Below the pieces are notes generated by a model. It worked only from the letters and a program-made list of their open reading frames with translations, did not search any database and was not told the origin of the DNA. Position numbers and translations under genes: made by a program. Source: Balanoglossus misakiensis (taxonomy: Eukaryota > Animalia > Hemichordata). From it: a stretch of 64,000 nt of DNA. The DNA lies in contig CM082585.2 of the NCBI GenBank assembly GCA_040954595.2, forward strand, positions 2,634,902 to 2,698,901, written 5' to 3'. Shown one piece after another: positions 719 through 64,000 of this stretch (the first letter of the stretch is position 1; the number at the start of each line of letters is the position of its first letter).

Positions 719-837
719 CGCCACATGCATGGCCATCCTCCAGCAGATAGAATCCTGGTCTGCAAGCGCACCGATAACTACCATGGGTATTCTGACAATA
801 GTGTTGGCACGCATTTCCACCACTGTGACATTCATAT
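719..837 (-). pseudogene. Calcium-binding EGF-like domain exon (frameshifted)
   Basis: Between cctccag| and |gtatgt the minus strand reads (Y)ECHSGGNACQHYCQNTHGSYRCACRPGFYLLEDGHACG, with six Cys in cbEGF spacing and a phase-1 donor. At 119 nt it is not a multiple of 3, and the usual DI(D/N)EC start is damaged. Confidence 0.8.
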
Positions 838-29264: not shown

Positions 29265-32200
29265 ATGGCATTTTGTGGTTATTTTATGGCCATAGCTGCA
29301 AGAGCAACAAAAGAGCTTTCTAATTCCGAAAAGTCTACTCAGGAAAAGGCTGAAAATACATCAAGATTTATGCCTGTTTACAACATATCCATTGGACAAA
29401 GGTATGCCAAATATCATGATATCCTGGCTAACAGCAGAAATATGCAAGTTACCAGTTTAAATTTAAACTGCCACGATTTGAGAAAACACTAAGTGCTTCA
29501 GTTCAATGGTTGAATTCCAACAGGAAAAATGTCAGTATTTCTCCAGCATTTTTCTGCAACTAGTTGGCAAAAACTGCCTTTATCAAGGCAAATCCTACAC
29601 ACAGCACTTGACTGTCAAGAGTGCCAAAGTAGCAATGTTGATGTTCTGCTTTTGAACAAGTACTATCAGAAACATATCAAAAGTCTTTCCTTCTCGACTG
29701 TTGAGGTAATTAAAGATGCAATGGGAGAGATGCAACAACTCCAAAATCCACATGAGACAAAGCTGACTGTCCCTCTTAAATCTGCCGTAAGAACTGCCGG
29801 ACAGCTATATCAGCGAGTAGAGGAGTCAAACAATAAAGTGTACTCAACACCTTTCAGTGAAGCGCTTCTCAAAGTTCCGGGGTTCAAGCTACAGACAAAA
29901 ATCAGCAAAGAACAGAAAAAGAAAGACAGACGAGCACTTTATACTAATGTCAAGCAAAGCATCGAAAAATCCCACGCTAAAAATGACGGAGATTTAAAAA
30001 CAATCCTAGGATCCGGTCAGTCATTTGCTTGCTACGAATCATGTTGACGGTCTGTTGACTTTGAGTCTACCGATTCTGCCAAGAAGCGAGTAAATCGCCG
30101 TCTACAACTAGAATCCCTCAACAAGCTGACACCAAAAGACCATGTTGAAAAACAGAGTCTGTTGAATGGAACAAAAGCTCATTTGTTAATGAACTTTCCA
30201 ATTATGATGCTGGCAAGGAGGTCAACTGGAGTAGCCTTGCGAGAAAGTACGGGCTAACAGCTGCAAATGGTGGCCAAATACTGAAAGAGTATGCAACCTC
30301 AGCTGGCATCGACACTGACAAGTTCAATATCAATAAGAAGGTTCAAGGTCGAGATTTTGTCAGAAGAGTACGCCGTAAAACATTGAAAGGTCTTGGGGGG
30401 AGGTGTCACTTCCTCAACACCGACCAGCAAGAGCCCTGCAAGAAATATTGAAAACAAAAATAAGAAGTGGCGAAATCGACATCGGTGAATTAATAGCACC
30501 AAAAGAGTTCCAAAAGATGACCATTGGAAAAGATGGCAAATTAAAAGAAGAAACTTATACAATCTACGCTAGAAAAATAAACTTACAGACAATCCGAAAA
30601 CGAGAGCTTGACAGACAAATTAAGCTTGGTGTTCTGAGAAGCCATGTTTATGGGTATGACGACGGTCATTACCAAAACCTAGAAGAAAAAGAAATAAGGG
30701 ATGAGCTACAAAGAATACACGAGTTGAAAGAAGGAGAAACCATCGATGAAATGCGCAGTAAATTAAAAAGACTACATCACTCACGGCACTTCAAAATATG
30801 GCATGACCACAGTACTGTAGGCAACCATTCCCACATTGTCTTCATGGTGAGCTGGATATACGACGCGGCAACATATCTGACAAATGAGGAGTACTTGGAG
30901 AAACACGGAAAAAAAGTAAACGTTGACTCGCTTGTTGAGAAGCCACATCTATATATAATGGGACGATCCAACTCCAATGACGTTGATCAGCTGTCATATG
31001 TTGAAACCAGAGTAGAAGATCTAAAATGTGCAACAGGACCAATAACATCCGACGAAGGTTCCAGGGAATACACAGATGTCCACCGATTTTTTCATGGCGA
31101 TGGACCGGCACAGGAGTTTGAGGATTGGCACCAGAAAGGAGGTCACTACCAGTGCATCTGTGGAATAGAGTCAAGAAGACATGATGATCTGTCTGCATGT
31201 TACCATCTGAAATATCTGTCAATAGATGAGAAACGTAACTTGTTAATCAAGGGCAGCCCAGTATGGTCACGGCAAACTCCCCATCCATTTGCCAACTTAA
31301 CAGTGGCCGACCTTAGGAGAGAGCTTGATGCTAGGGGTGAAGAAACCGAAGGATTAAAGAAGCCAGACTTACAATCTAAACTCTCTGAAATTTTACATGG
31401 TATGCAGAGAGTACCAGCACTGCTCCATCTCACTCCAGAATATAATCTTGCTGAAATAAACTGCTCTGCATATGAAATTTTGCCATCAGAGCCACTCCAT
31501 GACCTGAAGGGACACATCCACAATGTGTTAGAAGAAATTCCAGCACAAACCAAGGATAAAGAAGAAGCAGTAAAGTTACAGAACTTTATTCAGGCAACAT
31601 ATGGTGGTAAAGACGAAATTCGGGGATGCGATGCACGCAAAGCTATCCTTCTGGTGTCCCAGTATCTTCACGAGAACAACATAAATACTGAGCATGGTCA
31701 GCTTATTGACACGCTTGCTGATATAAGCGAAACTGCTTATAACCATGACAATGACAGATGCCTACGACTGATTCTGCGATTGTATAACACTGTATTTTTG
31801 CATGGAATATTGTGCAAAAGGGTATTTGAGAAGCCAAAGAAACTTACCAAACGAAAGATGTTCGGGCGGTATTTCCATAATATCACCGTCCATCTACCTG
31901 ATCAACTGAGATTGGTTTCTCTGAGGTCAACAAATGCTGAAAACCAGGAGCGAGTTTTCAATCGAATACGGAGAGTGACGAAAACAACTTCCTCCAAGCG
32001 TCCAGGTGGTATCATAGGTAATGCCATGATACGTCTAGGTGCAGAAGAAGAGATGACAAAAGAAAGAGATCCATCACAAATTATAGAATCTGAAATTAGC
32101 AAAATTGGAAAGCAGCTCCCAAAACGTCAGAATACAGTAATCCCTGAGGACGAAATACTGCGACGACCAACACTACTGCAAAGCCACTATGAAAGGATTG

Positions 32201-35200
32201 CAGATTTCGTGCTGCCAGGAGAAGGTGCATTGTGGCAGAGACATGAGGAAGCAATAGAGTTTTTAACTCTGATACCCAGGATGATTTCAAGGTATCTGCA
32301 GTGCAATTTAGTCCCAAATATTTTAACTCACACTTTTATTTCTTTTCAATAACAATTACTGTTGATTATATGCAGACATAATACAACAGATTGCATGGTG
32401 TTTTGGGACAGGAAAAACTAATCTAAAATATAGTATCAAAGCATCAAAAATTACATCTATACATGCCCTGTCTTTTTCATGGAACTTTTCTGTCAAGCAG
32501 GTTCTGTTATTTTTTGTGACGAGCAACCTCCATTTTTACAAATAATAGAACTATTCTCGGATATCCCACATTTTTTATGGCTTTCTAAAAAAGTCTCTTA
32601 CTCGCTGCCCTCAAACAAAAACTCAAGACATTTCTATTTCTCAAAGCCTACGAACACTGATGTTATACTTTCAGCGCCTTTGGAAATAACATTGTTATTG
32701 ATTCTGGCGCTTTAAAAATGTTTGTTTTGATTGATTGATTGATTGCCCTTTTTCTTTTTGTGTTTGATACAAAACACCATTTATGTTAATGTACATGTGT
32801 ATATGTAGTGAATGAACTTTCAACCACACACAAGTTCCACCATGCTTGTATATGAGAGTAAAAACTCGCCCAAAATGAATAAATGGTAGAGACCGATTGT
32901 TCATTTTGGCAAGGTTTTTCACTCTCGTGTCTACAAGCGGGATGGAAGGTGTGTGTGGTTGAATGTTCATTCAGTATATATCCACATGTACATTAACATA
33001 AACAGTGTCTTGAATGAAACATAATATTAATGGGGAAAGGGCAGCGAGAGAGAGAGACTTTGTCCCTTTAACAGCATGCAAATCCTTATTTATTTTGGAA
33101 AATTATATTGTAAAAATTGTCCAAGATTATAGTACTTACATTAGCCATTGGTGTTGTGTGTAAACTGTTATATAAAGAATGTTTGATCAATCTCCTTACC
33201 TGTTTATTTCTATAGGAACCAGGACCTCATCTGCAGCGGTCATAATCTATGCAAAAGGTACAATGTGATATCAACAGGTGTTGGTAAGATTGTGTGGACA
33301 GAGTAAGAAGTGAAGCAATTGCTTTACCAATCCACAAGATAAAGCTCTATGACAGCAATGATGAAAGAAGTGGTAGCCTCACTGTCACAGGCTTTCAAGA
33401 TGATAGCAGACGTAAGAGCATATTACATCACAGTCAAACCAAATAAGTGACTTCATCTGTATGCATATAATTTTGGGGGAAACATTACTTTCAAAAATAT
33501 GAATTTCTTTCACTTCAGCCTGTCAAAATTAATTGACCTATATATACCCAGCCATGTTCAACTTTCAATACCACATGAATTCAATGAAAGTATATCTAAT
33601 GGGCGAAATGTGTTGCTTCTCGCCTGATTTAGCAAAATGGAGTGACATAAATACTGGCTGGAACGGCTTAGTTAAATGAACTTTTGAAAGTATTTTTGAA
33701 TTATGATTAGTCTATCACAGTAATAAATTTTGAAATAACACTATATAATACAAGCACTACAAAAAAATGTCAATATTTTATACTACCTTATAGAATCCGA
33801 GGAAATTCCAGAGCATCCAATTGGTGTAGATGATGATGACCATGACTTGTTGATTAATCCTGGTTCCCATGAACACATCCTCTCAGTAGAAGATGATATA
33901 CTTGCCCTGATATCACCATGGACATGAATGACATCGAGCCGACAAGTGTACCTGAAAGGAACATAACATTACATGGTAGCAATGCTGAGGAGACCCGTTG
34001 CAGTATACCAATAGAAGATACAAGACAGACACAGCATAGTACAGGGGAAGACATCAACATGACAGACTGTGATTTGGAAACAGAGCACACTGAGGAGACA
34101 GTTGAAGCAGAAAGGATGGAAGTCAATGGTATGGAAAATTGCTGCACTCAAGAAGGTAACTATTACTATAGTGAAGTTACCATGTATGGGATTGTTCATT
34201 TCAAGGTTCCACTCATTCTTATTTCCTCCCCCCCCCATCCCCAAATAAATCTGCAAGCCCACATTCCAAACACATAATTATGTCACAGTGCAGGAGATAG
34301 TCATTTCAATTTTATTTTAGAAAGGAAAGATAAATGTGTGTGAGTGGGAAAAGATATGAAACATGACACACCCACATATATGTACATTTATAATATACCT
34401 CATGCTAATACTGTGCCGTGATTCGCCAGAATCCGTCACGTGATAGGAAAATAGAATCGACTATGAACCGCTAGGGAAATAGCAGAAAAAATATAAACCG
34501 GTCACGTGACCCGCGTGAGTGCGCAGACTCGGTCACGTCAATCAGCGTCGCGTCGTCTGACACAATGGCCACCACTGAAGATGTCGTCTGCCAGCCTCAA
34601 GAAAAAATTGCAAGATTTTCCCAGCTGTTAGCATGAGGTTTATTATAAAACACCTATAGCCTGGCCTATATTCGGGCCATAGCAGCCGTTTTTACCCCCT
34701 CGTGACTGTGAGTTACCAGAATCAGATGCTATTTCCCGAGGCCTGCGGCCTCGGGAAATAGCATATGATTCTCGTAACTCACAGCCCCTCGGGTGTAATA
34801 AACGGCCGCTATGGCCCTCATGGCCAGGCAATAGGTGTTCAATATTTCATGTTGACCTTGTGGAACCCCAGGTCAGTTTAAGTGGCACAAAAGGAAATCA
34901 CTTTAAGAAAAACTCATTATTATTGCTGTTAAACCTTAATGTTGTTTTCTTGTTTTCATTCAGGCAAGTCAAGTATCATAAGTTGCCAAATCAACAGCAA
35001 AGATAACAGCCACACATGAAGAGTCATCAATCTCAGAGTAAAGTTAGTGATACTTCTTCAACCACGATGGACAGTCTGATATTTGTCCTTGGAGAGACAA
35101 AAGAAGTCAAATAATTTGATAAATCACGAAATTCTTTGAAGGCCCTTCCCAATGATATGAAGTTAATAAATGAATATATAGAAGCTAAGGTGAAAGTAGG

Positions 35201-45220: not shown

Positions 45221-46629
45221 ATACTGTATATATACCATTTATATATTTGCGACAAAATTATTGTCATATATTGCCAAAGAAAACAATGGATTTCAAATAG
45301 AATTGTTTTATCAAATTCTGGATATATTTATTATTTAGCAGCATTCAAAAATGGCTAACGATGCAGTTTTTTATTTATTTAATTCATCCATATCAAACAC
45401 AGAAATGTTGTCTACCTAGGATAGGATGACTAGAACAATCATCTATACAAAGTCAGTCCCCCCAGATCAATGGGAATAAAAAGTGCCTTGCTCAAGGGCA
45501 CAAAATCATTGAAGTTTATGCCATTTCCACTCAAGTTGGACTGGAAGTCAAATATGAAGACATTTGTTGGAATTTCTCTTATCTCATATACTTATCTGCA
45601 TTCTGATTGTGAGCTGATCTGTTATGAGGGATTTTATTCTGAAATTGTTCTTTTTGGTGCTATGGTCTATTTATTTCCTAAGTGTCACATTCCACTGGAA
45701 TGAATTGTCTCTCCCCCCAGAAAACAGCATCTAGACCCCCCTGGGGATACCAAATGATGACTCCCTGAGTACTTAACTCACTCCAAAATAAAATCAACCC
45801 AGTGCCAATTCTTCAAACATTTCAAGTAAAATTTGCCTGATAGAAGTTTCTCTTGATGAAAATCACTTGTGACTCTGAAGTGTTGCACAGAAAAGAACTT
45901 GTTTCTTTTTTTCTTTCTTCAAAGGGTGGAAAGTGTACCAGTCACAAATCAACGTCGTAACCAGGGTAACTACCAATTTCATGTCAAAGTTCATACATGC
46001 TATCCTCTGCTCGCATTAATAGCGATGTTTTGGGCGATTTCTGAGGGAGACTACACTTTCTACATGCTCAATCATGAAGGTAGCTGTGTTGTGATTGGTT
46101 ATCTACACATTTGTCTCAGTCAGCAACCAATCAAAGCCCAGCTTACTTTCCAGTAGTTGAGTGAAAAAAAATTCATTAAGTTGGTTATTTTCACAAAAAT
46201 CAGTCCTCCAATCTCTTCCATGTTTTTGTATTAAAGTGTATATGAAGTCTATTTGAAAAAAATGATTTTCATCACCTTGGTTTCATAAAAAAATAAACAA
46301 TGTTCACCATGGAGTTATAGCGCCATTTTGAATTTCAAATTTGAGACATTTTTTGTCATTCAAATTTTTACGATGAATAATTAATCTGTATTCTTTGTTT
46401 TAAGCAAGAATAATCTAAAGTTGTATTGAGGAGAATATGACTGATTTTGAAGGTGCACATTAAAACCAAACATGAGAAGCAAGTAGGAATAGTTCATGTC
46501 TTGTATTGCAATAATTTGGCAGCCCGTGTTCAACTCGGGGGGTGGGGGGGGGGGGTGGGCGGATGCTAACAATGGACACACATATACACAAAAGATTGCA
46601 AAAGTAACAGATTTATTTTGAACACATCA

Positions 46630-46967
46630 AGGATTTTAAATACCTATAAAGAATCTTTCTGGCTGTGAAGAAGCAGTAAATAATTCATTTCTCAAGTCCT
46701 CATGAAAAAGAGCTGTAAAACTGCAGTTATGGAAACTACATTGCAAGGATTGGTAACAGATAATATTCATATCCAAGATGAGGTCATACATGGAATAAAG
46801 GATTTTAAATACCTATAAAGAATCTTTCTGGCTGTGAAGAAGCAGTAAATAATTCATTTCTCAAGTCCTCATGAAAAAGAGCTGTAAAACTGCAGTTATG
46901 GAAACTACATTGCAAGGATTGGTAACAGATAATATTCATATCCAAGATGAGGTCATACATGGAATAA
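46630..46967. repeat. Perfect 2-copy tandem duplication, 169-bp unit
   Basis: gattttaaatacctataaag..catggaataa at 46632 and again at 46801. Confidence 0.9.
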
Positions 46968-48396
46968 CATTTAAAGGGACAAAATCTCTCTCTCGCTGCC
47001 ATTTTTCTGTTAATTATGTTTGATACAAGACTGTGGATATATAGTGAATCAACGTTCGACCACCCACAACTTCCATCTCACTTGTAGACACGAGAGTAAA
47101 ACACTCGTCAAAATGAATAATCGGTCTCTACCGTTTATTCATTTTGGCGAGATTTTTACTCTTATATCCTTTAAACAGGCATAATTTTGAATGATAAAGC
47201 GAAACTGATTCAAATTTTAAAATCAAGATGGCCACCATTCAATGTGTATTGAGAAAATTTGAAGTATTTTTATTTTTGAGAAAGCAAATTTTTTTCTGTT
47301 TTCAAAGTGACTCTTCCCACATTTTAATACTAAAAATATAAAGATATGTCGACCACCTAAATAGCATGTCTGCAAAATGTGAATGGTGATGTCTGTATTA
47401 GTTTATAATTCAAAATTAAGAAAATAGTTTCTCAATCCTAATATGAATGATCTTGAAGTGACAACTTGTGTACATAGAAAAAAGATGTTGAGAGTGTGTT
47501 CAATGTAATTGAAAGCAAGAAGTGTATGACAACCTCTCTTAAATTGCATATTCTTGGGTAGTCATTTGCTTTTGGGAAATAGTACACATCAAAACCGAAG
47601 TCCAGAACATTACACAAAATCATTGTGAACATGAGTGAATTTCCTAAATCTGTCAACAAACAAAAGTAATGTTTCTAATGAAGATATTGATGATCAGGAT
47701 TAAAAATATTACTGTACAGCTTTTTGGTGAAAACAATAATTTGAATAAAAAATGTTGCAACAAATCACAAAAATCACTAGAATTTTAAAAAAAATCAACT
47801 TTATTTTGCTATAATGGTCATTGATGTCATTAGCTGCAGTTTGTAAACTCAACATGACAATTTCTTAGTAGTCACTTTCTCATAATTGTAATTGACTCAC
47901 TTTATTTGCATGTGTCTCCATCCTGTGAAGCTGACATGACATCATGTTCCTTAGAGTGATTTAATTTGTAATTAACCATTACATACACTTCAAATAGGTC
48001 AGTATCTGCAGGATGGTCTTGTACTGTATTTGGGTAATTCACTTTCTGTTATCTCATTCTAGATCTATGTCACAGATTCCATTCATTTATCTTTAGTTGT
48101 GTCACCTGTTGGTAGCTGTTTCTGCAATCACCATCTCCTCGTTGTACAGCCTGGTTATTGAGAAGACAGTAATGGTGGAGGGTGGTTTGGTGTATTGGCT
48201 TTGATTTCTCTGCAGGGCTTATAACAGTATGTGTGTACGGAACCTTTTCCTTGCACACGCACATTACGTTACTCAGTTAAATTTCTCAGACATTGCAACA
48301 AGTTCCATGGAAATACTGCCATCATTTGCCATACTAATCAGAAATTGATATACTGACGTCACAATGGTCTGCTTCAGAGATGTTGATGTCATCATC

Positions 48397-49651
48397 TTAG
48401 GACGTTAGATGTAGATGAGCCATGTCATCTTCAACATCATGATGATCAGCTGACACACCAAGTTTTCGGAACATCTCATGTATTTCTTCTCTGGCAGCGT
48501 AGACATCACAACTTTCTTGCTCAAGAATTTTAACCAGGTTGGAAAAATTGCTCTTACAGAATTTCTTATCTGCAGTTGGCTGTTGGCCTGCACGTTGTTG
48601 TCCTCCACAGCCCTTGGACCAAACAGATAAAGCATGTTGTGTGGGGGATTGAATCAATGCACTGTATTGCCATGAATCCACCTCCATGCGAGGGATCCCC
48701 ATCAAGTCTGCCATAGCCCTGTAGTCATTGCCGGATAAACGGATGATATCCATGATATTAGAAAATATCTTGAGGGCATCCTTCAGCATCCACTTGACAT
48801 CACTTTCATATCCACTGTGTCGGAGGATGGTTGTATCATACCCAGCACAAAGCAAGTCAGTAGCTGCTTCTGAAATCACCATCTCCTCGTTGTACACCTT
48901 CTCATTCCTCTCTTCTGCTTCCCGAATTTGCTTCAATGTATAGAATGTGACATCTTCAAGGTTGCGATGGTTTCGAAGAGAATCTGAACTCAACACGTGG
49001 ATGTCAAGTCTTGTACCAGGACAGCAGATCTCTAACACTTCATAAACAATATCAGTTATTGTCTCTAATAATTTGTAGCATTCGCCGATTTCCTCTTCTT
49101 TCTCTGCTCTAACACAAACATGGATAGCTCTCCAACCTTTTGTCATATACACCAAGCCTTCTGCATTGTGACACACTTTGATGCCATTTTTCCATATACC
49201 ACTTGTTTGTTGGTTGATCTTTCGGAAATGGCATTCTATTCGGGCGTGAAGTCGGGGGAAAAATCCTGGCGAGAAACTATCAGCATCATCTCTGCATTGG
49301 AACCGTCTGCCATAGTAAATTAGTAGCATCCTGTTTCCACTGATTTGCAGGCATATCTGTGTCCAACAACCCAGGTATTACATACCCAGTTACAGTATTG
49401 GATTCAGAAATGACCTCGTAGAGAAGGTCAAACTCTTTGAGAAGATTTATGAGCAAATCAATATCTGCCAGACCATGGAAAACTTCCTCAATTTCGCTTC
49501 TCATATGTAAGGACTTCCGCGGCAAGCGGTTTGCAAACTGCTCAAATATTTCAGGAGCCAGCATGGGACCGAATATTCTAGAACATAACCATTGGGGATC
49601 AAGAACAATGACGTCATCTGAATCTGGTAGGGTACTCTCGATTTGGAGCAT
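48397..49651 (-). CDS. Terminal exon: COR + Death domain, frameshift at ~49320-49330
   Basis: Acceptor tttattcacag|ATG at 49651. ORF 49286-49651 and ORF 48397-49329 overlap in different frames (..WKQDAT / IYYGRRFQC..). Confidence 0.88.
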
Positions 49652-52600
49652 CTGTGAATAAACAATGGGGAAAAATACTTATGTTTTGAGACATTTATTC
49701 AAATGAAATTGTGCATATATCTTAGTGACACACATACCAGTATGTAGATGTGTGCATGGCTGATCATACATAGGGAAACCGCGAAACCCAGGCCAAGTCT
49801 AGCCTTGCCTGGCCAAACCATCTCAGCTATAGTGATCGAAAAAAAACTCATCAACGCCACAATATTGCCACTGGTGATTTAGGAACAATGTCAGGGCTAT
49901 ACCCACACTAGTGACACACATGGACCACAAAAACATGTTTATAGCAGAGGGCCTTTTCTGTTATTTTTTCTCAGTCTTGAATCCCTGTCTAGATCCTCAG
50001 CAAAAGGCTCTGTCAAGCCTTTCACCCCCAGATCCCTCTTAAGGGTTAAATTTGTATGACACTAATCATGATCAAACAAAGAGTGCACTTAACGGTTGAC
50101 ACAAGCACACCCCCTGTCAACAAATTTTCCAGCGTTATTTCTGGTTTCTGTATTAGTACTTGCTTTTCATATCCCATGGTTTATATGTTCAAGTCAATGA
50201 TGCCCTCTATTTTTGATGAACCCTGGCATTGATAGGTTTTAAAGAATTTCTAGAAAACTTTCAGAACTCCTGTTGGTCTTTGGAAAGGTTTCATCAGTAA
50301 TTGTTCTGTGATAAACATAATTGCAGTACTGTACTTTCTCCAAACTTTGCGAGAACATTTTCTTGTAGTATGACTTCATACTGTAAAACGGGTTCTTTTC
50401 GCGACAGGAAATTTTCGCGATATCAAAAGAAGCAACTGTTATGCATGGATTAATTTTGGCTTTCTCGTATTTCACTAACTGCATTGTTATCTAAGAAAAA
50501 AAACATTTTATGCGACTTTTGTATTTTCACATTTTTGGGGGCTCTCGCATATTTCATGAAAATTTATTGCTCGCGAAATAACCTGTTTTACAGTATCCTC
50601 CATAGATTTCTTAACCTACTGATCAAGTGGGGTAATGTCTTCAGCAATGATTTCTTACCTCCCCAAGGTAGTAAAGGTATCTCGTAGCTTTCTTTAGAAA
50701 CTCTTCATCAATGAAACGATCCAACTCTTTCACTCTTTCTATATATGTTTTCCATTTGATGACCGGGAAACTGCTCACAATCCATTTGCTTCTTCCATCA
50801 AGTATCTTAGCACACAACTTTGGTATGTATTCTTCTCTCTGTAACATTAACACAGCGACATATACCAGGTTCATGTCCAGACAGGGTAAAATTCAAAACA
50901 TTTTATAGACACTATTTGCCAATAGTAAACACAGAGCATTAATCCTTTAAGTCGCCTTGTGTACACACACACAAACAATGGGTTGCGGAGAGGTGTTAAT
51001 CCTTACACTGGCTCAGGTCTGACCAAAGCCGTCTCAAATCTGAGACGTTTCAGGACCACTTAAACCATTCACACATGATAATTTACGCCAGTATTTCATC
51101 TGAGATGTTTCAAAAACGTCTTAACGATGACCCCCATAATACTGTTGTTTGGTGAAATGAACATTCAGAAAAGCAACTCGAACAATACTGGCAACAGTGA
51201 TATTCACCCTTTACAGACACAGCCCATTATTTAAAGTCTTGTTCTCACTAAAAGTTTGGACACCGGTGTTATGCCAGTGTTTACTCTCTGCAAACACAGG
51301 GGATTAGCCCACAGAATCTCCTTGCGTCCACACACTAAACTTTTGGCCACTGTTTTGAAATAAACACCGTCTAAATGGCCATGTTTAGCAACACGGCAAC
51401 TAACAAAATTGAGGATGTCGAGGACATTACAGCAACATGTTGCAGTTTATATACCTGCATATACGTTCTAGACGACTTTGTGACAGTTTTGATAATGTTT
51501 AGAAGTAAATGAATGTTAATCCATAAATGGAAAATGCCTCGGCTTTTTGGTGATCGAGAGAACCTTCTGAAAGTTGGTAGCAGACTGAAGTGTTGCAGAC
51601 CTGGCAAACTGCGAATGGTTTGAAAACCACTCGCGTCCAGTGTGATTGACTTAACAATGGAAACTGACCAAAGACAATGGGCTATACCTAATAAACATAC
51701 CCAAAAGTCACTGCAGGGTGGCGCTTTTGAACGGTGTTTGTTTATCTTTGCGTTCTCACTGATTATTTGCGTTGGAGTGCTGGCCCAGCACTGGCCCTGA
51801 CCCACCACCCATCGCTGTCGCAAATTAACACCGGCCCAACACCGGTGTAAAGCGTTCTCACTTGTTTTTTTCCGTCGATGTCAAATCTACACCGATGTAG
51901 CACCAGTGTAAACGTGCCAGTGAGAACGCCCTTTTAGACAGTTCTGATACCCGGTAAGTCAAAAGTATACAACCTTGACTTATTTCCCACTGATAAGAGT
52001 TCAGTTATTACTATCTGATAGTTGGCTTTCTTGGACTCTATGCATTACATGAGAGTATTAAGGTGATGTAAAGCATGCCTTTGTCAAATATGGCCCTAAT
52101 GAATTAACATGTTCAATCCAGTCACATATTGCAGAATATCTATAAAACCATACCTTTGCACTTCGTAGACATTCACGCAATCTGTGCATATCATTATGCT
52201 GCGAGTTGTGACAATTCAGTATGAATGTCTCATCAAGAATATTCAGGTATTTGCCAAAGGTCTTCTGAGCTGTCTGGAGTATTTCCCTCATCACCAATTC
52301 AGCTATCAAGAAAAAAGTAATGATCTCTTGATAGATTTTTATTTACAAAGTATGGACATGTACACAGAAGAGGCCACTTTGGTGCTGTTTTGTATTTTTT
52401 GAAAGCATCCGGTGAAATTCTACATCAATCACACTGTCTGAATAGGTAAAATGTTGAATAGTAATGAGATCTCCTTTTGCATAGGTTCAGATGTAGTATG
52501 GGTGTCCCTTTCGAACAGAACAGCCAAGAATCAGCAAAGGTAAAGACAGCGCCCAACACTACATCTGGTTTTAATCAGATTGAGTGTACTCCCACACCAG

Positions 52601-55600
52601 GCTCCCAATTGTGTGAATACCCTCGCTCTTGTCACCTTTTATCTAAACATGTACTGAACATACCTTCTTTCTTGTGTTCAGCTTTCAACAAATCAGCCTT
52701 GCTTCCAATCAATATCACTTTTGGTTTACTCCCACCCTCATCCATATCTTGTGGTATGATTGCCTTAAGGAATGCAAGCCATGATGTCACCTATTAAAGA
52801 AAGACATGAAGAAGAATATAAAGTCATCAATCATATTATATTCAATCAGTCCCTAAATCTGGATAAAAACAAAAAGAGATAAATGTTTCACAAATATATA
52901 TACTGTGCCATTCATCTTTACTTTAATTTCATTCACAATATTGCACCACCTAATTCACTGATGCACTGCTTAGTAATAAAAAAAATATTGTAATATATGC
53001 ACTGTGCCCTTTCTGAGTTTCATCTTTACCTTTATTCCATAATTGCTCAAAGTATTAATATCACTTATCATCAGTAACAAAAAAACAACGACCCACCTCT
53101 TGTCTCTGCTGTTGCATAAGTTTTCTTGGTGTCCAAACTACATCCTGCTTGTCCTCAGCCATTTTGAAGACCAATAAAACCACTGCATTCTCGACTCTTA
53201 GGAACATATTATGTGTGACATAGTATTCTGTTTGTCCCGCAAAGTCCCACACACTGAACTTGCCAATCTTGGGTATGGATAATGTGGCTACATCTATGCC
53301 GGGTGTTGGTGTGTACTGCATGTTCCCTGGTAAAGGTGCTTTCTCTTCTGACCGTCGAGTCAATTTTGCTTGCACAAAGTTCTGCATTGTAATATATGAA
53401 CATAAATGATGATTTTCTCATAATTTAGAGGTTGTAAACTTATAAACGGCAAGCGAGAGTATTTGATTCCGGATATAAGACCTCCCAGGTGAAACTTAGC
53501 ATATTTGGCGGGAAATAATCACTGAGCGAGGCGAGGCGTTCTGTTCTATGTGTCCCATTTCGGTTATTTTTTAGTTATTCACTGTTCAGGGTTCAGGTCT
53601 TCTCGTTGAGGATATAAACCGCGACTCGGGCCAATCAGCAAGCTGGATTAATGCCAATCATATTGTAATAATATAAAATATTTGGAGAATTGGCTGGTCA
53701 ACAAAATATGTACCCTGATTTCCACTGAAATGTAGTCTTCATGAAAACTTTAATATTTGCACAAATCCTTCACTCCTCAAAAACAGCAATAATTGGCATT
53801 CATAATCAAAGATTTCTACACACCCGCTGCAATGATTCTTTGAGTGTAGTTTTGCCATTCCCACCGTATCCAGCTAACACAATCTTTGTAGTATTACGTT
53901 TGACACCAGGTTGTCTCATGAGTGCTGTGAATTCTTTTTGGCGGGAAAACACCTGTCAGAATTTGAACAGATATGTTATGTGTTATATATATTGGGAATT
54001 TTTACACTCAATTTGCATGCCTTTCAATTAAACACCATGCCTTCACAGAAGTCACATAACATTTTGCTTCAGAAAAGATATTGATAAAAACGCTAGTATC
54101 AAAAATATAATTTACATTGTTAACTACACTATTATGATGTGCTTATGATGTGGAAGCTATCATTAACACTATAGAAATAATGCATAGTTAAAGCCTCATG
54201 AGCTGCCAAATTTAACATATTTTTTCCATAACTTCTATTTGCATAAGTTTGCCATCTCTTTGTGACGCATACCTCGATAGTTGTGTACTCTTTGTGTATA
54301 TTCAACATTGTTATTTTGCAAAATTTGAATTGAAGTCCGGACTAGAATTCATGAGTCAACAATAACAATGGTTGTTACAGAGACGGGAAATATACACAAG
54401 TTGAGTACTGGGCATATTAGCATGCAGTTTGGAGAAGAACATGAAATTGCATTTTGTACACAAAAGGAAAAAAATCTGGAAATAAAGCCAAAAGTTATAG
54501 GTAATGTCCCTTTAATGCATTCCTAGCTGGCACAATAGAATAAGCATGTAGTTAAAAATTTATATGACAGTCTGGTTTTATGTTTTCCATGTTATAAATA
54601 TAGAAGATAAATTCAAATACACTAGTGATATGATATGTTTTCATAGCCATTTATTATCAACATTACGACGTACCTTATGATGGTTGATCAGGTCTCTTTT
54701 GTCATCTCTGTCATACACTGAGTTTATAACTGCCTGTATTTTCATTGATGAAAACAGAACATATATGATTGATTATATTATACCAGTATATTGATGGTGT
54801 AAATCACGCTATTTTATTGGTCGAGACATGACACGTGACTGTGATATATTAGCCATATACCATAGTCATATATCATAGTCAAAGAAAATGCCTTTTTAAA
54901 ATGTTTTATGCAAAGTTTCAATATACTGGCATAATATAATAGCAATAAAACACCCCCAGCCATGGTATACCACTCGATTTTGACCAGTTCAACTCCATAT
55001 ACGCACTCGCTATCGCTCCTGCGTATATGTCGTGAACTGGTCAAAATCGAGTGGTACACCATGGCTGGGGGTGTTTTATTGCTTAAATGAACTAGCTGTA
55101 AAGTACAGGATTATGACAATTATACCACACCATGCATATTATGGACACTATTGTTAAATAATTTTGGTAAAAAATAAATGGATTTAAATATCCATGTGTC
55201 AGGTGTGAGTTGCCGGTAAGCTTTATAAAACTGGTCAATGAGCATCTTTTAGAACAACAGAAAGAGCCAATTGGTAAATAACTGAAATACAGCCAAATCT
55301 CACAGTCCAAATTGGCCAGTCAGAGTGACTTTCCTAAATTGGCCTTAATAGACAGGTGGCCTGTATATACAAGTCAATAATTGCCCATGTTAACTGCACA
55401 GGGACTGTAACAAAGTGGCCACTATATAGAGGTGGTCGGTAACTGACACAATTTCACTGTTTTATCAAAAGTGAGTAACCTTGCCCTTTTAAATCTAACT
55501 CAATACTTGCCTGATATACTTTCTCATTGTCAAAATGATATTCCACAAAGGCTCTTGCAATATTGGTGCCTGCACCCCGCCCAGCCTTCCTTCCTGCCTC

Positions 55601-58600
55601 TTGACAAGGAGTCACTCCGTTCTGAAAATGGATCACAAATTTTCATAGATGAATACATGCATCAGATGATTGAGGCACGCACACCTATAAGTCAAATTTT
55701 AGGTCCTCCCAAACACTGAGATAATTTGCTTTTGAGTTCATAAAAATGCAACTTTGAGCTACATATTTTACAAAATTTTCTTATGTGGGAGGGGGACACC
55801 CCCTCGCACACCCCTCCCCTTCCACTCTTCGCCACATATCATTTATTCGCTGGTTTGTCTAGTGTACCACGGCAGACTTCTACCCACCCTACCCCCGATG
55901 TTTACTTTGAGTGGAGTGGCCAAATTAAAATTTGTCCTGCCTAACATTGAGTTAATTTGCTTTAGAGTTCATTCGAATGCAACTTTGAGCACCGTATTTT
56001 ACAAAGTTTTCTTAAATTTTCTATTGTATTGACTTGTCATTTTATTTTGTTCATAGATTTTTTATTGCAACGATATACTATTATATATACTTCAATTACT
56101 TTAAGAAATTTATAATTGAGGTGTGAGGAGCCTCATTCCCTTTATTGCATACAGTGTACATAGGATCAGCACGGCGAATGTTTTCAGCGGGAGGGGGGGG
56201 GGTGTCATCATATTTTGGGTCTGTCAAAGGGGGGGTTATCATTTTTTGGTCCTCGGTGAAGGGGGGGTCGGCCTGATTTTGAAAATCGATGACCCAAACT
56301 TGCCCCCCCCCCCCAGCCGTAAAAACTGAACAGTCCCTAACGTGTGTATTCGATGCGAGCTGGAAGTCAAATGAACGGTTACTCACGTTGGAACACCCAT
56401 TCAAAATATGCAAATTAGGAAAAGACGCATATGCATTCTTTTCATCCCCAGAGACACACGCAGGAAATCAAGCAAGTGCGGCCACTAGCTGGAAGAGCTG
56501 AATTCAATGCATTGCCTTGTAATGTTCATGATACAGGGGGGTGATGATCAATGAATAGAACAACAATTGATTGATTAACAAAGAAAGAAAGAAAGGAATG
56601 CAAATCGTTTCCACACCTGCCTGTATAACACCTGACCTGACAGAGTGAGCAGTTTTGATTCAAAGGACAATGACAAAATTATATGACATATGCTGCAAAA
56701 TCCAAGGGGTCTCCTTTCTGTAAGTCATGAAGGAAGAGCATGAGAACAATGTCACAAAAATTGAAATGAAATGTGTTTTCTTATACAAACAAACAAACAA
56801 ACAAACAAATAAACAAACAAACAAACAAACAAACAAATGAATAAATATATCGGCATTGATAGAATAAACCTGCAGAAGTCAGGTTTGTATTTACCTTGTT
56901 TTGTATGTTAACATCAGCTTTGTGTTCCAATAACAATCTGACAAGGCCTTCACCACCAACCCTCCTTGCTGCATAATGCAAAGGAGTGTCTCCATCCTGT
57001 AAGTAATGAAGGAGGAGCATGAGAATAATGTCACAAAAATTGAAATATAATGTGAAATTTCCTTAAACAAAAACAAAAACAAAAAAATCTTTCAATACTT
57101 TCAGAATTAACCTGCAGAAGTCAGGTTGGTATTTACCTTGTTTTGTATGTTAGCGTCAGCTTTGTGTTCCAATAACAATCTAACAAGCCCTTCACCACCA
57201 TCCCTCCTTGCTGCATAATGCAAAGGAGTGTCTCCATCCTGTAAGTAATGAAGGAGGAGCATGAGAATAATGTCACAAAAATTGAAATATAATGTGAAAT
57301 TTCCTTAAACAAACAAACAAACAAATAAATGAATAAATATATCCGCAATGATAGAATAAACCTGCTGAAGTCAGGTTGGTATTTACCTTGTTTTGTATGT
57401 TAGCATCAGCTTTGTGTTCCAATAACAATCTGACAAGGCCGTCAACACCATCCCTCCTTGCTGCATCATGCGAAGGAGTGTCTCCATCCTGTAGGTAATG
57501 AAGGAGGAGCATGAAAATAATGTCACAAAAATTGAAATATAATGTGAAATTTCCTTAAACAAACAAACAACCAAATAAATGAATAAATATATCCGCATTG
57601 ATAGAATAAACCTGCAGAAGTCAGGTTGGTATTTACCTTGTTTTGTATGGTCACATCAGCTTTGTGTTCCAATAACAATCTGACATGGCCTTCATCATCA
57701 TCCCTTGCTGCATAATGCAAAGGAGTGTCTCCATCCTATAAGTAATGAAGGAGGAGCATGAGAATAATGTCACAAAAATTGAAATATAATGTGAAATTTC
57801 CTTAAACAAAAAAAACAAAAAAATATTTCAATACTTTCAGAATTAACCTATAGAAGTCAGGTTGGTATTTACCTTGTTTTGTATGTTAGCATCAGCTTTG
57901 TGTTCCAATAACAATCTGACACGTCCTTCATCACGAAACCTTGCTGCATAATGCAAAGGGGTGTCTCCATCCTGTAAGTAATGAAGGAGGAGCATGAGAA
58001 TAATGTCACAAAAATTGAAATCTAATGTGAAATTTCCTTAAACAAACAAACAAACAAACAAACAAATAAATGAATAAATATATCCGCATTGATAGAATAA
58101 ACCTGCTGAAGTCAGGTTGGTATTTACCTTGTTTTGTATGTTAGCATCAGCTTTGTGTTCCAATAACAATCTGACAAGGCCTTCACCACAATCCCTCCTT
58201 GCTGCATAATGCAAAGGAGTGTCTCCATCCTGTAAGTAATGAAGGAGGAGCATGAGAATAATGTCACAAAAATTGAAATATAATGTGAAATTTCCTTAAA
58301 CAAACAAACAAACAAACAAACAAATAAATGAATAAATATATCCGCATTGATAGAATAAACCTGCAGAAGTCAGGTTGGTATTTACCTTGTTTTGTATGTT
58401 AGCATCAGCTTTGTGTTCCAATAACAATCTGACAAGGCCTTCACCACCATCCCTCCTTGCCGCATCATGCAAAGGGGTGTCTCCTGTCTGTAAGTAATGA
58501 AGGAGGAGCATGAGAATAATGTCACAAAATTGAAATATAATGTGATATTTCCTTAACGAAACAAACAAACAAACAAATAGACAAACACACAATAAAATGA

Positions 58601-61600
58601 ATAAATATATCCGCATTGATAGAATTAACCTGCAGAAGTCAAGTTGGTATTTACCTCGTTTTGTATGGTCACATCAGCTTTGTGTTCCAATAACAATCTG
58701 ACAAGGCCTTCACCACCATCCCTCCTTGCCGCATAATGCAAAGGGGTGTCTCCTGTCTGTAAGTAATGAAGGAAGAGCATGAGAATAATGTCACAAAAAT
58801 TGAAATATAATGTGAAATTTCCTTAAACAAACAAACAACCAAATAAATGAATAAATATATCCGCATTGATAGAATAAACCTGCAGAAGTCAGGTTGGTAT
58901 TTACCTTGTTTTGTATGGTCACATCAGCTTTGTGTTCCAATAACAATCTGACACGGCCTTCATCATCATCCCTTGCTGCATAATGCAAAGGAGTGTCTCC
59001 ATCCTATAAGTAATGAAGGAGGAGCATGAGAATAATGTCACAAAAATTGAAATATAATGTGAAATTTCCTTAAACAAAAAAAAACAAAAAAATATTTCAA
59101 TACTTTCAGAATTAACCTATAGAAGTCAGGTTGGTATTTACCTTGTTTTGTATGTTAGCATCAGCTTTGTGTTCCAATAACAATCTGACATGTCCTTCAT
59201 CACGAAACCTTGCTGCATAATGCAAAGGGGTGTCTCCATCCTGTAAGTAATGAAGGAGGAGCATGAGAATAATGTCACAAAAATTGAAATATAATGTGAA
59301 ATTTCCTTAAACAAACAAACAAACAAACAAACAAATAAATGAATAAATATATCCGCATTGATAGAATAAACCTGCTGAAGTCAGGTTGGTATTTACCTTG
59401 TTTTGTATGTTAGCATCAGCTTTGTGTTCCAATAACAATCTGACAAGGCCTTCACCACAATCCCTCCTTGCTGCATAATGCAAAGGAGTGTCTCCATCCT
59501 GTAAGTAATGAAGGAGGAGCATGAGAATAATGTCACAAAAATTGAAATATAATGTGAAATTTCCTTAAACAAACAAACAAACAAACAAACAAACAAATAA
59601 ATGAATAAATATATCCGCATTGATAGAATAAACCTGCAGAAGTCAGGTTGGTATTTACCTTGTTTTGTATGTTAGCATCAGCTTTGTGTTCCAATAACAA
59701 TCTGACAAGGCCTTCACCACCATCCCTCCTTGCCGCATCATGCAAAGGGGTGTCTCCTGTCTGTAAGTAATGAAGGAGGAGCATGAGAATAATGTCACAA
59801 AATTGAAATATAATGTGATATTTCCTTAACGAAACAAACAAACAAACAAATAGACAAACACACAATAAAATGAATAAATATATCCGCATTGATAGAATTA
59901 ACCTGCAGAAGTCAAGTTGGTATTTACCTCGTTTTGTATGGTCACATCAGCTTTGTGTTCCAATAACAATCTGACAAGGCCTTCACCACCATCCCTCCTT
60001 GCCGCATAATGCAAAGGGGTGTCTCCTGTCTGTAAGTAATGAAGGAAGAGCATGAGAATAATGTCACAAAATTGAAATGTAATGTGAAATTTCCTTAAAC
60101 AAACAAACAAACTAACAAACAAACAAACAAATAGACAACGACACAAACAAATGAATAAATATATCTGCATTGATAGAATTAACCTGCAGAAGTCATGTTG
60201 GTATTTACCTTGTTTGGTATGGTCACATCAGCTTTGTGTTCCAATAAAAATCTGACAAGGCCTTGACCACGACACCCTCTTACTGCATAATGCAAAGGGG
60301 TGTCGCCATCCTGTAAGTAATGAAGGAGGAGCATGATGAGAATGTAAAGAAAAATGAAATGTAACATGAGGTTATTTTGTTAAAATGAACGATCGAACAA
60401 ACACACAAACGACAAATAATCGCAAACTCCCTTGTGGATAATATTAACCAACAGTAAATGGCATTTGAACAGAAACAGTATCGACTCTACACACAAGATG
60501 TGTAATTCAGTTTTATACATGCATTTTAACAAGCTAAAAGAATTCTGACAAAATATCTGCCAGTTGATACAGAAAGAAAAGTTACTATAAATAATTCACA
60601 AACAAACTCAAATTTGACAACTTGCAAAACAGATAACATTACGGATAACCAATACACCAATTTTAAACTGAACTTTATTTATGATTTTCTATCAAAAAAC
60701 TGACAGTGATGTGATGTTAGTGAACATTTCCTGAATGGGACCAATTTATTTTTGCAACCTGCACAATATAGAAGAAGATTTAGCAAACAACTACAGTGAC
60801 ATTTAGTAGAATTATCAGAAGAATTTTGAATAATCACATCTCATCTCCAATATGATGACAAATTTGAGATATGTGGAGATTTATGTGGAAACAGATCAAA
60901 CATCTGAGCTAACCAAACTATGTTTATTTCCTGTAGGAGGGCATCAGACTGTTCTCAGCACAAAGTAGCCAAGCTGTGCAGACTGAACGATGTGGATCAA
61001 AGGGGAAATAACAGAGAAATTGTATGTGACAAGGGATAAATCAATCATCATTAAAATAAATTTCTGCTGAGTGGTCCAACAATATCAAGTAGAGTTGTGC
61101 AATGGTGTCACTAGTTATTTGTAGAAATAGTGTTTAAATAAAAAAACTTGAATTTCACCGAAAAAAAAATCCATCTAAAGAAAGTTAACACTGATTCCCT
61201 TTCTCCATCGCACTGCATCAAAAAGTCTAATAACCAAAGAAAGACTTCAGTGGACACTGTGGCCAATGGGAATGTGTGGCAAACAAAATTAAATGCAATG
61301 AATGCAGTCATTCTTTTCATGAAATATAAAGAACAAACAAAATTATCAAAACTCTTCATAAGAGATACCATTGAAAGCCACAGTAGCACTAACTTTAAAG
61401 GACATTTGTGTAACCATTCCAGCCGTGCCCCACACTAAAACAGAACAGATTGGACCAGTCACACTTCCCTTAATCCTATTGTTCCCAATGTTTATCTCAT
61501 CAATATATCTATTGCATGCTTTTAGCACCTTCTCTCAGGTTCTGGAACCTGGTTGGTTAAAACTGGCTGTTCTGGCCATCTTGATCACCCCCTTTGAAAT

Positions 61601-63501
61601 GATTGGGTAAGTGACAGACAGTGATGAGAAGCTGAGGAGTGGAGCCGCACAGACCTCATGTTTTATAAGCTTGAGCTATTTCCAAGAGAAAGAGCAATCC
61701 AAATGCTGCCGCTGTGTTGCTCAGAATGATGAAAAAAATCATCCGACTGAACAATTTAATGTTAAAATGTATTATATTGTATAAAGTTTATAAAAGGTAA
61801 ATTGGGTTGGCACTGTGCTATTCAGCCTAAAGTACAAGCTAAAACTGGCCGACTCCTCTCGGCACCGTCAACAAGCACCCCTGCCCCCAGCAAGTCCCCA
61901 ACTTGACATGTGTGATGTGACCATGGCTGCGCATCCGTCTTTCGGTCCTAAAAGTTGCCAAACAAACCCCAGTTTAAAACGGCCCCAATCAGAGCCGCAA
62001 TGAAAACAAGTTCTTCTGGTAAAGTCTTACTCAAAATGTTGCTATGACTATAATTCTGACACAAAACTGAGCATGAGTGTGGACTGATTGCATAAAAATA
62101 TTGTGAAAGTACTTCATGTAAAAAAGGGAGGAGGCTCCACAAACCAGACTATTTTTGTTTATGTACATGATGTACTTGTGCGAGGGTTGTCAACTTGATA
62201 GCCATTCTCAAGATTTACAATCGTTATAAGAGTGTACGTATACAAGAAAAGTAAACTCCTGAATATTAAAGGGACAAAGTCTCTCTCTCTCTCGCTTCCC
62301 TTTTTCCATTAATTATGTTTGATACAAGACACTGTTTATGTTATTCTACATGTGTATGTAGTGAATCAACGTTCGACCACACACAAATATGCAAAGGAGA
62401 ATTTATTAATAAGCCATACCCACCAAAATCTTATCAGATCTAGAACTTATCATAACAATGCTACATACAAAATTTCATATCATTGGATTCAATTTCTCTC
62501 AAGATATGAGTGGAACAAAATCTGTCTACAGAAGGACAGACAGAAATCGCTGTGCCAATAATGAGATTATTATTTAAACCACAAAAGATTGATGATAAAC
62601 AATGCAATAAACAACAACATCCTTATGTTCAACAAGACAGTTTTTGGCAGATGCTGGAGACAATCCCCCTTTCTCATAACTCCAAATTGCTCACAGTGGA
62701 GATCAAATGTCTCAGATATAGGAGAGACAATCACATCACCATAATGAATCAATACTTGCCTGTGTCTGGACAACACGTGGCCGAGAGGAAGTAGTTTTGA
62801 TTCAAAGGACAGTGACAAATTATATGGCACCTCCTTATGATGAATTGTATTAGGTACCAGACAGGAGTTGGCAGATGCTGGAGGCCGACAGACAATCACC
62901 CTATCTGATACGTTCTGTGATAGGATTGGCATGGACTGTCATCAGTCTATCTGTACAACACCTGACCAATGGAGGGAGTAGTTTTGATTCAAAGGGCAAT
63001 GGACAAATATATACATTGTATCCCAGACACAATTTACTAAGAAAACTACAGAGGAAATGGCACTATTGAGAAAGCTCATACTTTTAGAATTTACCTGCAG
63101 AAGTCAGGTTGGTATTTACCTTGTTTTGTATGGTTACATCAGCTTTGTGTTCCAATAACAATCTGACACGGCCTTCACCAACATCCCTCCTTGCTGCAGA
63201 GTGCAAAGGGGTGTCTCCCCACTGTAAGTAATGAAGGAGGAGCATGAGAACAATGTCACAAAAATTAAACGTAATGTGTAATTTTCCTTAAACAAAAAAC
63301 AAACAAACAAACAAACAAACAAACAAACAAACAAACAAAAAATAAATGAATAAATCATTCCATACTGATAGATTAACCTGCAGAAGTCAAGTTGGTATTT
63401 ACCTGGGTTTGTATGGTAACATCAGCTTTGTGTTCCAATAACAATCTGACACAGCCTTCACCACCAAACCCTGCTGCATCATTCAAAGGGGTGACTCCAT
63501 C
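48397..63501 (-). CDS. Ankyrin-repeat Roc-COR-Death domain protein (DAPK1-like Roco); 5' end lies beyond the window; frameshift in the last exon
   Basis: 16 ankyrin exons (63403-63501 down to 56895-56996), then 55511-55621, 54674-54733, 53824-53952 (P-loop GYGGNGKTT), 53097-53381 (TPGID, WDFAGQTEYY), 52664-52790 (IGSKAD), 52154-52302, 50659-50838 and 48397-49651 (COR: VLDPQWLC, FFPRLH, WKNGI; Death domain: GNDYRAMADLMG..SPTQHALSVW). Splice phases are consistent. No kinase domain in the window. Confidence 0.9.
50381..50593. mobile_element. Tc1/mariner-type MITE; other copies at ~3058-3250, ~5693-5895, ~10225-10425, ~14451-14657
   Basis: ta|CTGTAAAAC ... GTTTTACAG|ta, with the internal ttttcgcga motif shared among copies. 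Confidence 0.7.
50659..50838 (-). CDS. Roco gene exon (COR N-terminal part)
   Basis: ttacag|REEYIPKLCAKIL..FLKKATRYLYYLGE|gtaag, 180 nt, phase 0-0. Confidence 0.85.
52154..53952 (-). CDS. Roc GTPase exons (53824-53952, 53097-53381, 52664-52790, 52154-52302)
   Basis: G1 GYGGNGKTT, G2 TPGID, G3 WDFAGQ, G4 SKAD; canonical splice sites and matching phases. Confidence 0.9.
54810..55086. mobile_element. Second copy of the 44.6-kb hairpin element (reverse orientation), intronic
   Basis: Palindrome 54941-55083 is near-identical to 44650-44791. Confidence 0.65.
56690..60345 (-). repeat. Tandem array of exon+intron units (~235-280 bp), each carrying one 99/102-nt ankyrin-repeat exon
   Basis: 14 intact exons: 56895-56996, 57137-57238, 57387-57488, 57637-57735, 57873-57971, 58128-58229, 58386-58487, 58655-58756, 58905-59003, 59142-59240, 59397-59498, 59659-59760, 59928-60029, 60209-60310. 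Each is bounded by tta(c/t)ag| (one ctacag|) and |gtaaat and encodes xGDTPLHxAA...VRLLLEHKADxxIQNK. Introns are homologous, with variable (aaac)n. Confidence 0.95.
63120..63501 (-). CDS. Two further ankyrin exons (63403-63501, 63120-63221)
   Basis: DGVTPLNDAAGFGGEGCVRLLLEHKADVTIQTQ and WGDTPLHSAARRDVGEGRVRLLLEHKADVTIQNK; same donor context as the array. Confidence 0.85.
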
Positions 63502-63506
63502 CTGTA

Positions 63507-64000
63507 GATAGATAGATAATAGATAGATAATTTTTATTATAGTGACTAGTGTTTTTTCAACACCAAGCCACAACGGGCTTATTAGTCACTTTAAACAAAA
63601 AGAAATACATATTCATCTGAGTTGCTGTTCATGATACACACACACAAAAATGAAGTAAAAACTACACAGGTATCTGAAAAATCTCGCACAGAAATTGCAG
63701 ACAAAAAAATGTAGGTTGTCAGCGTACTTCGTAGAGTACAGACTGCCGTTTCCAATAAGCTTTAGCAATAAATTTTGATGTGCTTCGACTCATTTCATTG
63801 AGGAGCAGTTTTAGTTTCTCTATTTCTGACAAATCTTGGAACTCTGAAAAATGCTTACTGGTAATATCAAATAAATGCTCTCGATATTCAGTATATAAGG
63901 TACAGTGCAAAAGAAAATGAAATTCGTCTTCCACTGCATTCTCTGAACAAAATATACAAATTCTATCATTCAAAGCTTCTCCTCTAAATCTGCCTGTTTC
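63507..64000 (-). mobile_element. 3' end of a non-LTR retrotransposon (LINE ORF2 C-terminal Zn-finger-like region, 3' UTR, (TATC)n tail)
   Basis: GRF..NDRICIFC..EDEFHFLLHCTLYTEYR is a typical LINE ORF2 C-terminal motif; it is followed on the minus strand by AATAAA and (tatc)n. Confidence 0.8.

Follow-up and report, generated by a model that had tools for sequence, protein, structure and literature searches.

Does an animal genome hold a receptor gene whose recognition repeats can be re-assorted as interchangeable exons? The question is raised by a locus of the hemichordate Balanoglossus misakiensis, contained in a 64,000-nt stretch of DNA (GenBank assembly GCA_040954595.2, contig CM082585.2, positions 2,634,902 to 2,698,901 of the forward strand; hereafter the window, to which all coordinates refer). 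An earlier inspection of its letters, here called the sequence-only reading, had proposed that a series of ankyrin exons joined to Roc, COR and death domains forms a diversifying immune receptor. We analysed this minus-strand gene, its relatives and public DNA runs. At a probability of roughly 0.55, the gene, with one-repeat exons that were duplicated and likely recombined, would encode a sensor of non-self in the cytosol, its specificity being altered through the germ line.

A tandem array of one-repeat ankyrin exons

The array consists of 16 exons bounded by AG and GT (63501-56895, minus strand). Five measure 99 nt and 11 measure 102 nt, and every exon is in phase 0 and encodes exactly one ankyrin repeat (16/16; the one unit scanned matched Pfam Ank with E=6e-10). 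Between them, 14 of the 15 introns are 137-181 nt long and mutually homologous, the remaining one measuring 2,809 nt. Tandem Repeats Finder (TRF) recovered the array with a period of about 258 and a score of 4067, well above chance. These features agree with what the sequence-only reading described, namely at least 16 single-repeat, phase-0 exons of 99 or 102 nt flanked by homologous introns. The count of 16 needs qualification, however, since only 13 units are distinct because five derive from a recent block duplication. Pairwise, the exons differ at 0-18 nt, and a one-codon loop indel separates repeat units.

Exon 1 (63403-63501, 99 nt) is the first in the window and has no start codon, the gene's 5' end and any upstream exons lying beyond the window. 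Directly upstream of it (63720-64000, minus strand) a frame ends in a CxxC...H..C motif, which we take to resemble the C-terminus of a non-long-terminal-repeat retrotransposon. Exon 2 (63120-63221, 102 nt) precedes the 2,809-nt intron, and exons 3-16 (56895-60310) follow as tandem exon-plus-intron units of about 240-280 nt in phase 0. In a relic 17th unit (56618-56717, minus strand) the acceptor survives along with a damaged beginning of the exon, which runs into sequence resembling intron 2; the unit's donor is absent and it is predicted to be skipped in splicing. The relic is broken in one of the public runs (X2) as well. A search of both strands in the rest of the window gave no additional ankyrin exons.

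Duplication and probable exchange among units

Units 4-8 (60029-58757) and 9-13 (58756-57489) are two copies of one 1.27-kb block (1,273 nt; together 57489-60029, minus strand) that differ by 6 substitutions and 5 gap bases. Could this duplication, and perhaps the frameshift described below, be assembly artefacts? The blocks differ by about 0.5%, near the 0.8% seen between haplotypes, and the frameshift is absent from the public runs wherever its site is covered. The differences between the blocks nevertheless fall at specific sites and include microsatellite length, at least 11 units would be left without the duplicated block, and the unit family was found in the public DNA runs. We judge an artefact very improbable.

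The units also bear marks of exchange. Each of the four possible combinations of a linked 5' block with a linked 3' block is represented (units 4, 5, 6 and 8). Of the 190 informative site pairs among the array units, 23 are incompatible with a single tree, and both results argue for exchange between units besides duplication. Judged by this mosaic pattern, the array units have likely recombined. Weighing in the other direction, incompatibility did not grow with distance (p=0.52). An H/R swap that sets units 7 and 12 apart from units 8 and 13 was considered as proof of conversion and rejected, since CpG decay accounts for it.

Repeat positions are numbered with TPLH at 6-9, as set by alignment to chains of designed ankyrin repeat proteins (DARPins). 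Three public DNA runs from one sample (X1, X2 and X3) were read as contigs, which reveal the presence of variants rather than copy number or unit order. Compared with one unit, the runs yielded 31 listed exonic variant rows. Nine of the 31 occur in no window unit, eight of these lying at positions 5, 10, 13 or 15-17 and none in codons 21-28, and may derive from alleles or paralogues. Conversely, 23 window variants are unlisted in the runs, including the unit-type bases of units 4, 5, 9 and 10; with contigs recording presence only, this is only a hint that the array differs in the run sample.

Variation and selection within the repeat

Amino-acid changes are unevenly spread over the repeat, with 18 of 32 in positions 10-19 (p=0.007) and a single one in helix 2 (positions 20-29; p=3e-4). 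Helix 2 is indeed almost invariant, as had been noticed from the letters, and the variants then listed at the first residue (D/T/W), after TPLH (Y/D/S) and in the loop are all present. The repeat framework evolves under purifying selection, its ratio of nonsynonymous to synonymous differences per site (pN/pS) being 0.25 (p=0.003) and, within units 4-16, 0.18 (p=0.007).

The sequence-only reading had further equated the variable sites with the concave face varied in DARPins. In a designed ankyrin library, positions 2, 3, 5, 10, 13 and 33 were randomised as the concave surface (PMC4308713, same numbering assumed). Within the window array the groove sites that vary are 3, 10, 13 and 14, while positions 5 and 33 are nearly constant. 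Position 14 was also varied in classical DARPins. Much of the array's variation falls at positions 15-19, in the turn between helices 1 and 2 and the start of helix 2, where DARPin libraries are fixed and the array is strongly variable; the comparison with the DARPin surface holds for the four groove sites and does not extend to 15-19.

Site models were compared on the 13 distinct exons, where M2a was preferred over M1a at an omega of about 3.4 (the gap was placed in two ways, giving p=0.026 and p=0.021), with a posterior above 0.8 at positions 3, 10, 15 and 19 and at one loop codon that moves with gap placement. At positions 15-19 pN/pS was 1.8, which gave p=0.007 against exonic synonymous sites pooled with intron flanks, this group of sites having been chosen post hoc.

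Several observations weigh against adaptive diversification. Against exonic synonymous sites by themselves, positions 15-19 gave p=0.19; the groove, with pN/pS of 1.2, was not significantly above exonic synonymous sites (p=0.70); and M1a/M2a on units 4-16 only gave p=0.14. The M1a/M2a test was home-made, and tests of this type are inflated by recombination. An Arg codon undergoing CpG decay would yield the H and C seen at position 19 and the C at position 15. Since the exposed residues of the groove are variable in every ankyrin, enrichment there cannot part positive selection from relaxed constraint. Moreover, repeat arrays generally diverge fast under relaxed selection (PMC5120217). Because recombination inflates the test and some changes at 15 and 19 are CpG-like, positive selection on array codons is suggested rather than shown, and only modestly supported. 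The per-site check that the sequence-only reading had proposed was divided, favouring selection over all distinct units and failing to reach significance in units 4-16 and in the counting test. Of its idea that crossover or conversion generates recognition diversity, duplication and mosaic units were recovered, and it is the diversifying selection that the data bear out weakly.

Such figures would also fit a protein derived from DAPK that serves as a scaffold or regulates cell death and whose endogenous partner is fixed; in it the array turns over like a minisatellite, purifying selection acts on the fold only and the surface drifts. A groove ratio of about 1.2 that is indistinguishable from neutral, the core-array site test (p=0.14), the changes explained by CpG decay and a C-terminal half in DAPK1 domain order are all in keeping with this explanation. 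A fixed partner, though, would tend to fix groove residues, and the repeated lineage-specific expansion and independent homogenisation found below in hemichordates, amphioxus and a brittle star, and in none of the kinase-bearing DAPKs, would be left over. A scaffold is a possibility to be taken seriously, but a doubtful one.

The Roc-COR-death domain exons

Roc, COR and death domains had been placed within 56690-63501 together with the ankyrin exons; their exons lie instead at 55621-48397 (minus strand), where eight exons, to which the array is predicted to be spliced, continue in frame. They begin with a C-capping ankyrin-like exon (55511-55621, 111 nt), whose GC donor was inferred from a gapless match to paralogues, and a linker exon (54674-54733, 60 nt). 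Four Roc exons follow, carrying the P-loop GYGGNGKT (53824-53952, 129 nt), the switch I and DFAGQ motifs (53097-53381, 285 nt; Pfam Roc E=2e-8), the G4 region (52664-52790, 127 nt) and the Roc C-terminus (52154-52302, 149 nt). The P-loop, switch I, DFAGQ and G4 motifs are all present in the translation, leaving the GTPase motifs intact. COR stands directly after Roc, divided between a COR-A exon (50659-50838, 180 nt) and the last exon (48397-49651), which holds the remaining COR-A, COR-B and the death domain. Pfam matched COR-A with E=8e-4 and COR-B with E=5e-6, neither of which reaches the curated cut-off.

A family profile matched the Roc-COR of LRRK2 (E=2e-8), and neither NACHT nor NB-ARC was matched in those exons that were scanned, nor in three relatives of full length; the NTPase is Roc. 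The Pfam Death match was weak (E=0.07). Structure prediction for the last 307 residues (predicted local distance difference test, pLDDT, 84) gave a model of the C-terminus that aligned with the C. tepidum COR (Z 13.8, root-mean-square deviation, rmsd, 2.5, 139 aligned) and with the MyD88 death domain (Z 12.5, rmsd 2.9, 104 aligned). On this model the gene bears, C-terminally, a death domain, which is out of frame in the window haplotype. Pfam, profile and fold matches together uphold the ankyrin-Roc-COR-death domain architecture that had been proposed.

Two annotated isoform pairs of Ptychodera differ by 92 and 43 residues. The splice model gains support from the equality of these lengths with window exons, 127+149 nt for the first and 129 nt for the second. 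In these Ptychodera flava pairs (P0006/P0027 and P0005/P0026) in-frame skipping takes out either 43 aa, the exon of the P-loop, or 92 aa, a pair of Roc exons; the resulting proteins would be GTPase-dead, possibly as a regulatory device. Downstream of the window gene lies a perfect two-copy tandem repeat of 169 nt (46629-46967).

A frameshift in the window haplotype

The sequence-only reading implied a fusion intact through the death domain and overlooked a break. Near 49320 the last exon shifts frame, before COR-B and the death domain, both of which are out of frame, so that COR is split in the window haplotype and a stop falls at codon 1008 of 1304. The three runs were compared with the window over 48300-56760. 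Five extra bases at the 49320 site keep the frame in X1 (the single covering contig) and in X2 (one contig, 3200 of 5183 summed depth), X3 being without cover there. Eight listed contigs of X1 differ from the window at 29 of 3,800 bases (0.8%), which marks another haplotype. The window is predicted to carry a null or truncated allele, or an assembly error. A short intron spanning the frameshift was rejected, as it would cut conserved residues and the runs have five more bases instead.

The frameshift, like the damaged TPLH motif of unit 14, tells against a functional receptor and invites the explanation that this paralogue is in decay and that its array grew once the gene no longer functioned. 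The relic unit 17 would suit decay too, as would a Gly-to-Ala change in the switch I motif of the other haplotype and the finding that 10 of its 18 evaluated coding substitutions are nonsynonymous (among 40 of 175 variants listed, some near the gene's end being perhaps paralogue-derived). Yet the other haplotype is in frame, all 16 exons keep frame and splice sites, purifying selection on the framework is seen even within units 4-16, and there is no stop in the 457 codons from the cap exon to the break. Decay is unlikely. For a non-self sensor, a null or truncated allele beside an in-frame one would be as expected of a birth-and-death receptor family.

A probably kinase-less family apart from DAPK1

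All 13 matches of a first protein search were hemichordate, most of them named 'DAPK1-like'. Relatives comprise at least 15 clusters in Ptychodera flava, seven of them on one 23-Mb scaffold, and at least six Saccoglossus, two Glandiceps, five Branchiostoma and four echinoderm proteins. Identity with relatives reaches 60% in COR-B and the death domain. A search with the family profile gave 142 representatives with E no higher than 1e-30, and 936 when the limit was 1e-10; names were retrieved for 20 of 143 new representatives. The survey for paralogous genes suggested by the sequence-only reading was productive, recovering an expanded, repeat-homogenising family in hemichordates, echinoderms and amphioxus.

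In a quick maximum-likelihood tree of 58 chosen sequences, supports being from the Shimodaira-Hasegawa-like approximate likelihood ratio test (SH-aLRT), the window gene falls among Ptychodera proteins in a clade of 21 whose named members are all hemichordate (SH-aLRT 99). Beside it stand clades whose named members are amphioxus (SH-aLRT 100) and echinoderm (SH-aLRT 99). The kinase-bearing DAPK clade (12 sequences, SH-aLRT 100) is set apart from the 39-sequence clade of the window gene (SH-aLRT 97), and Roc-COR grouping in this quick tree gave no orthology with DAPK1. A kinase motif was present in 6 of 160 family sequences, those in the tree falling outside the window's clade, and the nearest full-length relatives begin with Met and ankyrin repeats. 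The absence of a kinase is inferred from relatives because the gene's start lies beyond the window; the gene is likely a kinase-less ankyrin-Roc-COR-death domain gene, in a clade that appears separate from DAPK1 and expanded in hemichordates, echinoderms and amphioxus.

With DAPK1 the gene shares its ankyrin-Roc-COR-death domain order, and most relatives bear the DAPK1-like name in databases. DAPK1 itself, however, has a kinase and old, divergent ankyrin repeats, whereas the window's close relatives are kinase-less and form a separate, expanded clade. The 'DAPK1-like' models XP_070546803.1, XP_070546714.1, XP_077996865.1, XP_019636860.1 and XP_072045771.1 belong to the same clade and architecture, and are automatic annotation only. 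No prior description of an ankyrin-Roc-COR-death animal family was found in the open literature searched, although Figure 2 of PMC11378527 (about forty animal ROCO architectures) or its supplements may list it, a caveat that extends to the supplements of PMC8195603 and to subscription papers.

Repeated homogenisation of ankyrin repeats

Ankyrin repeats occur in 74 of the 160 family sequences and number three or more in 47. Median nearest-repeat identity was 0.7 or more in 10 of these 47, whereas in the six kinase-bearing sequences it was 0.36-0.45 and none was homogenised. In a set made up of the window and 12 proteins picked for high identity, the nearest neighbour of 116 of 123 repeats lies within the same protein, which indicates that homogenisation arose repeatedly; it is seen independently in hemichordates, amphioxus and a brittle star. 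The window repeats are more homogeneous than those of the Ptychodera, Glandiceps, Saccoglossus, Branchiostoma and echinoderm models.

Where repeats of the 12 proteins are near-identical, 190 of 394 differences lie on seven groove positions against 84 expected, an excess to be discounted in that the pairs are not independent. Positions 15-19 are not enriched in these proteins (65 against 60 expected). Glandiceps talaboti P0017 has two alternating repeat types that have been homogenised separately and vary mainly at 2, 3, 5, 10, 13 and 14. In an annotated amphioxus (Branchiostoma) isoform exactly 99 residues, or three repeats, are absent, which could be exon skipping, or a shorter allele in a hybrid. 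The isoform pairs of Ptychodera and Glandiceps differ outside the ankyrin array, which tells against a diversifying receptor.

Comparison with known systems

The gene would work in the manner of the LRR-ROCO receptors of brown algae and the ankyrin NLRs of fungi, whose repeats evolve under a like regime. In brown-algal LRR-ROCO genes each repeat has its own exon, and the genes show inactivated exons, clustering, pseudogenes and concave-face selection (Zambounis 2012, PMC3341825; Teng 2024, PMC11378527), and have been proposed as immune receptors, with splice variants and strong positive selection reported (PMC3341825, PMC11378527). The Balanoglossus gene has in common with them, as described there, a Roc-COR switch with one-repeat exons, inactivated exons in the array and variable concave residues. 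The algal repeats are leucine-rich (LRR) and in phase 2, whereas the window gene has ankyrin repeats in phase 0, a C-terminal death domain and an animal lineage, and its introns form part of the repeated unit, unlike those of the algae.

Fungal NLRs with highly conserved ankyrin repeats undergo concerted evolution, with copy-number polymorphism and groove selection (Dyrka 2014, PMC4986451). Near-identical ankyrin repeats with variable sites on the hairpin and inner helix are shared with the window gene. The fungal proteins differ in their NACHT or NB-ARC ATPase, N-terminal effector and C-terminal repeats, and repeat-number polymorphism has been measured in the fungal genes. That such NLRs are tied to non-self recognition (PMC4986451) is compatible with diversification for allorecognition or for gamete-level self/non-self discrimination, in place of pathogen sensing. 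Allelic and unit-level variation would suit either use. The protein is, however, predicted to be cytosolic, the animal group is apparently solitary, and the genes form a multi-locus family rather than one polymorphic locus, leaving only a slight chance for this use.

Prokaryotic counter-invader proteins with an AP-GTPase (Roc) and COR have a predicted role in biological conflict (Kaur 2021, PMC8195603), and the ROCO genes of Trichoplax number 17 or more (Civiero 2014, PMC4104024). Both resemble the window gene in setting Roc-COR between variable repeats and death-fold or effector domains. Their sensors are LRR or tetratricopeptide (TPR) repeats, and the available parts of PMC8195603 and PMC4104024 contain no exon-cassette ankyrin array. 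In Aplysia, ROCO domains occur in TIR proteins (PMC9334734).

Other features of the window

Outside the gene, a unit of about 4.5 kb is present in roughly three tandem copies at 1880-14651 (98% identity over 5.8 kb, the third copy at 89-91%); open frames on its minus strand are rich in Ser, Thr, Pro and Gln. At 730-850 (minus strand) a short stretch resembling an exon translates into a Cys-rich repeat, which we take to be EGF-like and to suggest a neighbouring gene for an extracellular protein. At 21589-25198, inverted arms of about 1.5 kb (96.7% identical, with 361-nt subunits) extend over the ends of a 175-aa frame rich in Cys and His, and the element looks like a foldback-type DNA transposon. 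An uninterrupted 657-aa frame at 30379-32352 (plus strand) contains a SAP domain (E=4e-5); no match to a solved structure was found for it, and its Asp/His/Glu motifs presumably make it a candidate DDE transposase of the Transib/RAG1 kind.

A proposed model for a germ-line-varied sensor

How might such a gene work? Homologous introns would let units misalign, so that unequal crossover and conversion could add, drop or recombine in-frame repeats, with the invariant helix-2 stretch a likely host of these exchanges. The ankyrin groove would take up a ligand, be it altered self or a protein from a microbe, and this binding would change the nucleotide and dimer state of Roc-COR. The death domain could then recruit death-domain adaptors and feed into NF-kB or caspase signalling. 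From its sequence, the array gene is probably a fast-diversifying immune sensor.

A wider proposal, which we offer as speculation and hold to be improbable as a whole, is that non-vertebrate deuterostomes, namely acorn worms, echinoderms and amphioxus, carry unrecognised intracellular receptors of immunity as GTPase-switched counterparts of NLRs, with ankyrin surfaces that amount to a natural DARPin library, diversified between alleles and also within the individual animal by combinatorial exon skipping or somatic exchange of units.

Intracellular variable-repeat receptors of animals are usually NLRs; here a parallel family would be built on a GTPase switch of the LRRK2/DAPK type, one that grew separately in three groups of deuterostomes and that the label 'DAPK1-like' conceals in databases. 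If the sensor reading is true, the exon-cassette strategy of brown algae would have arisen again in animals with a different repeat, and ROCO proteins would gain a testable ancestral role in non-self sensing.

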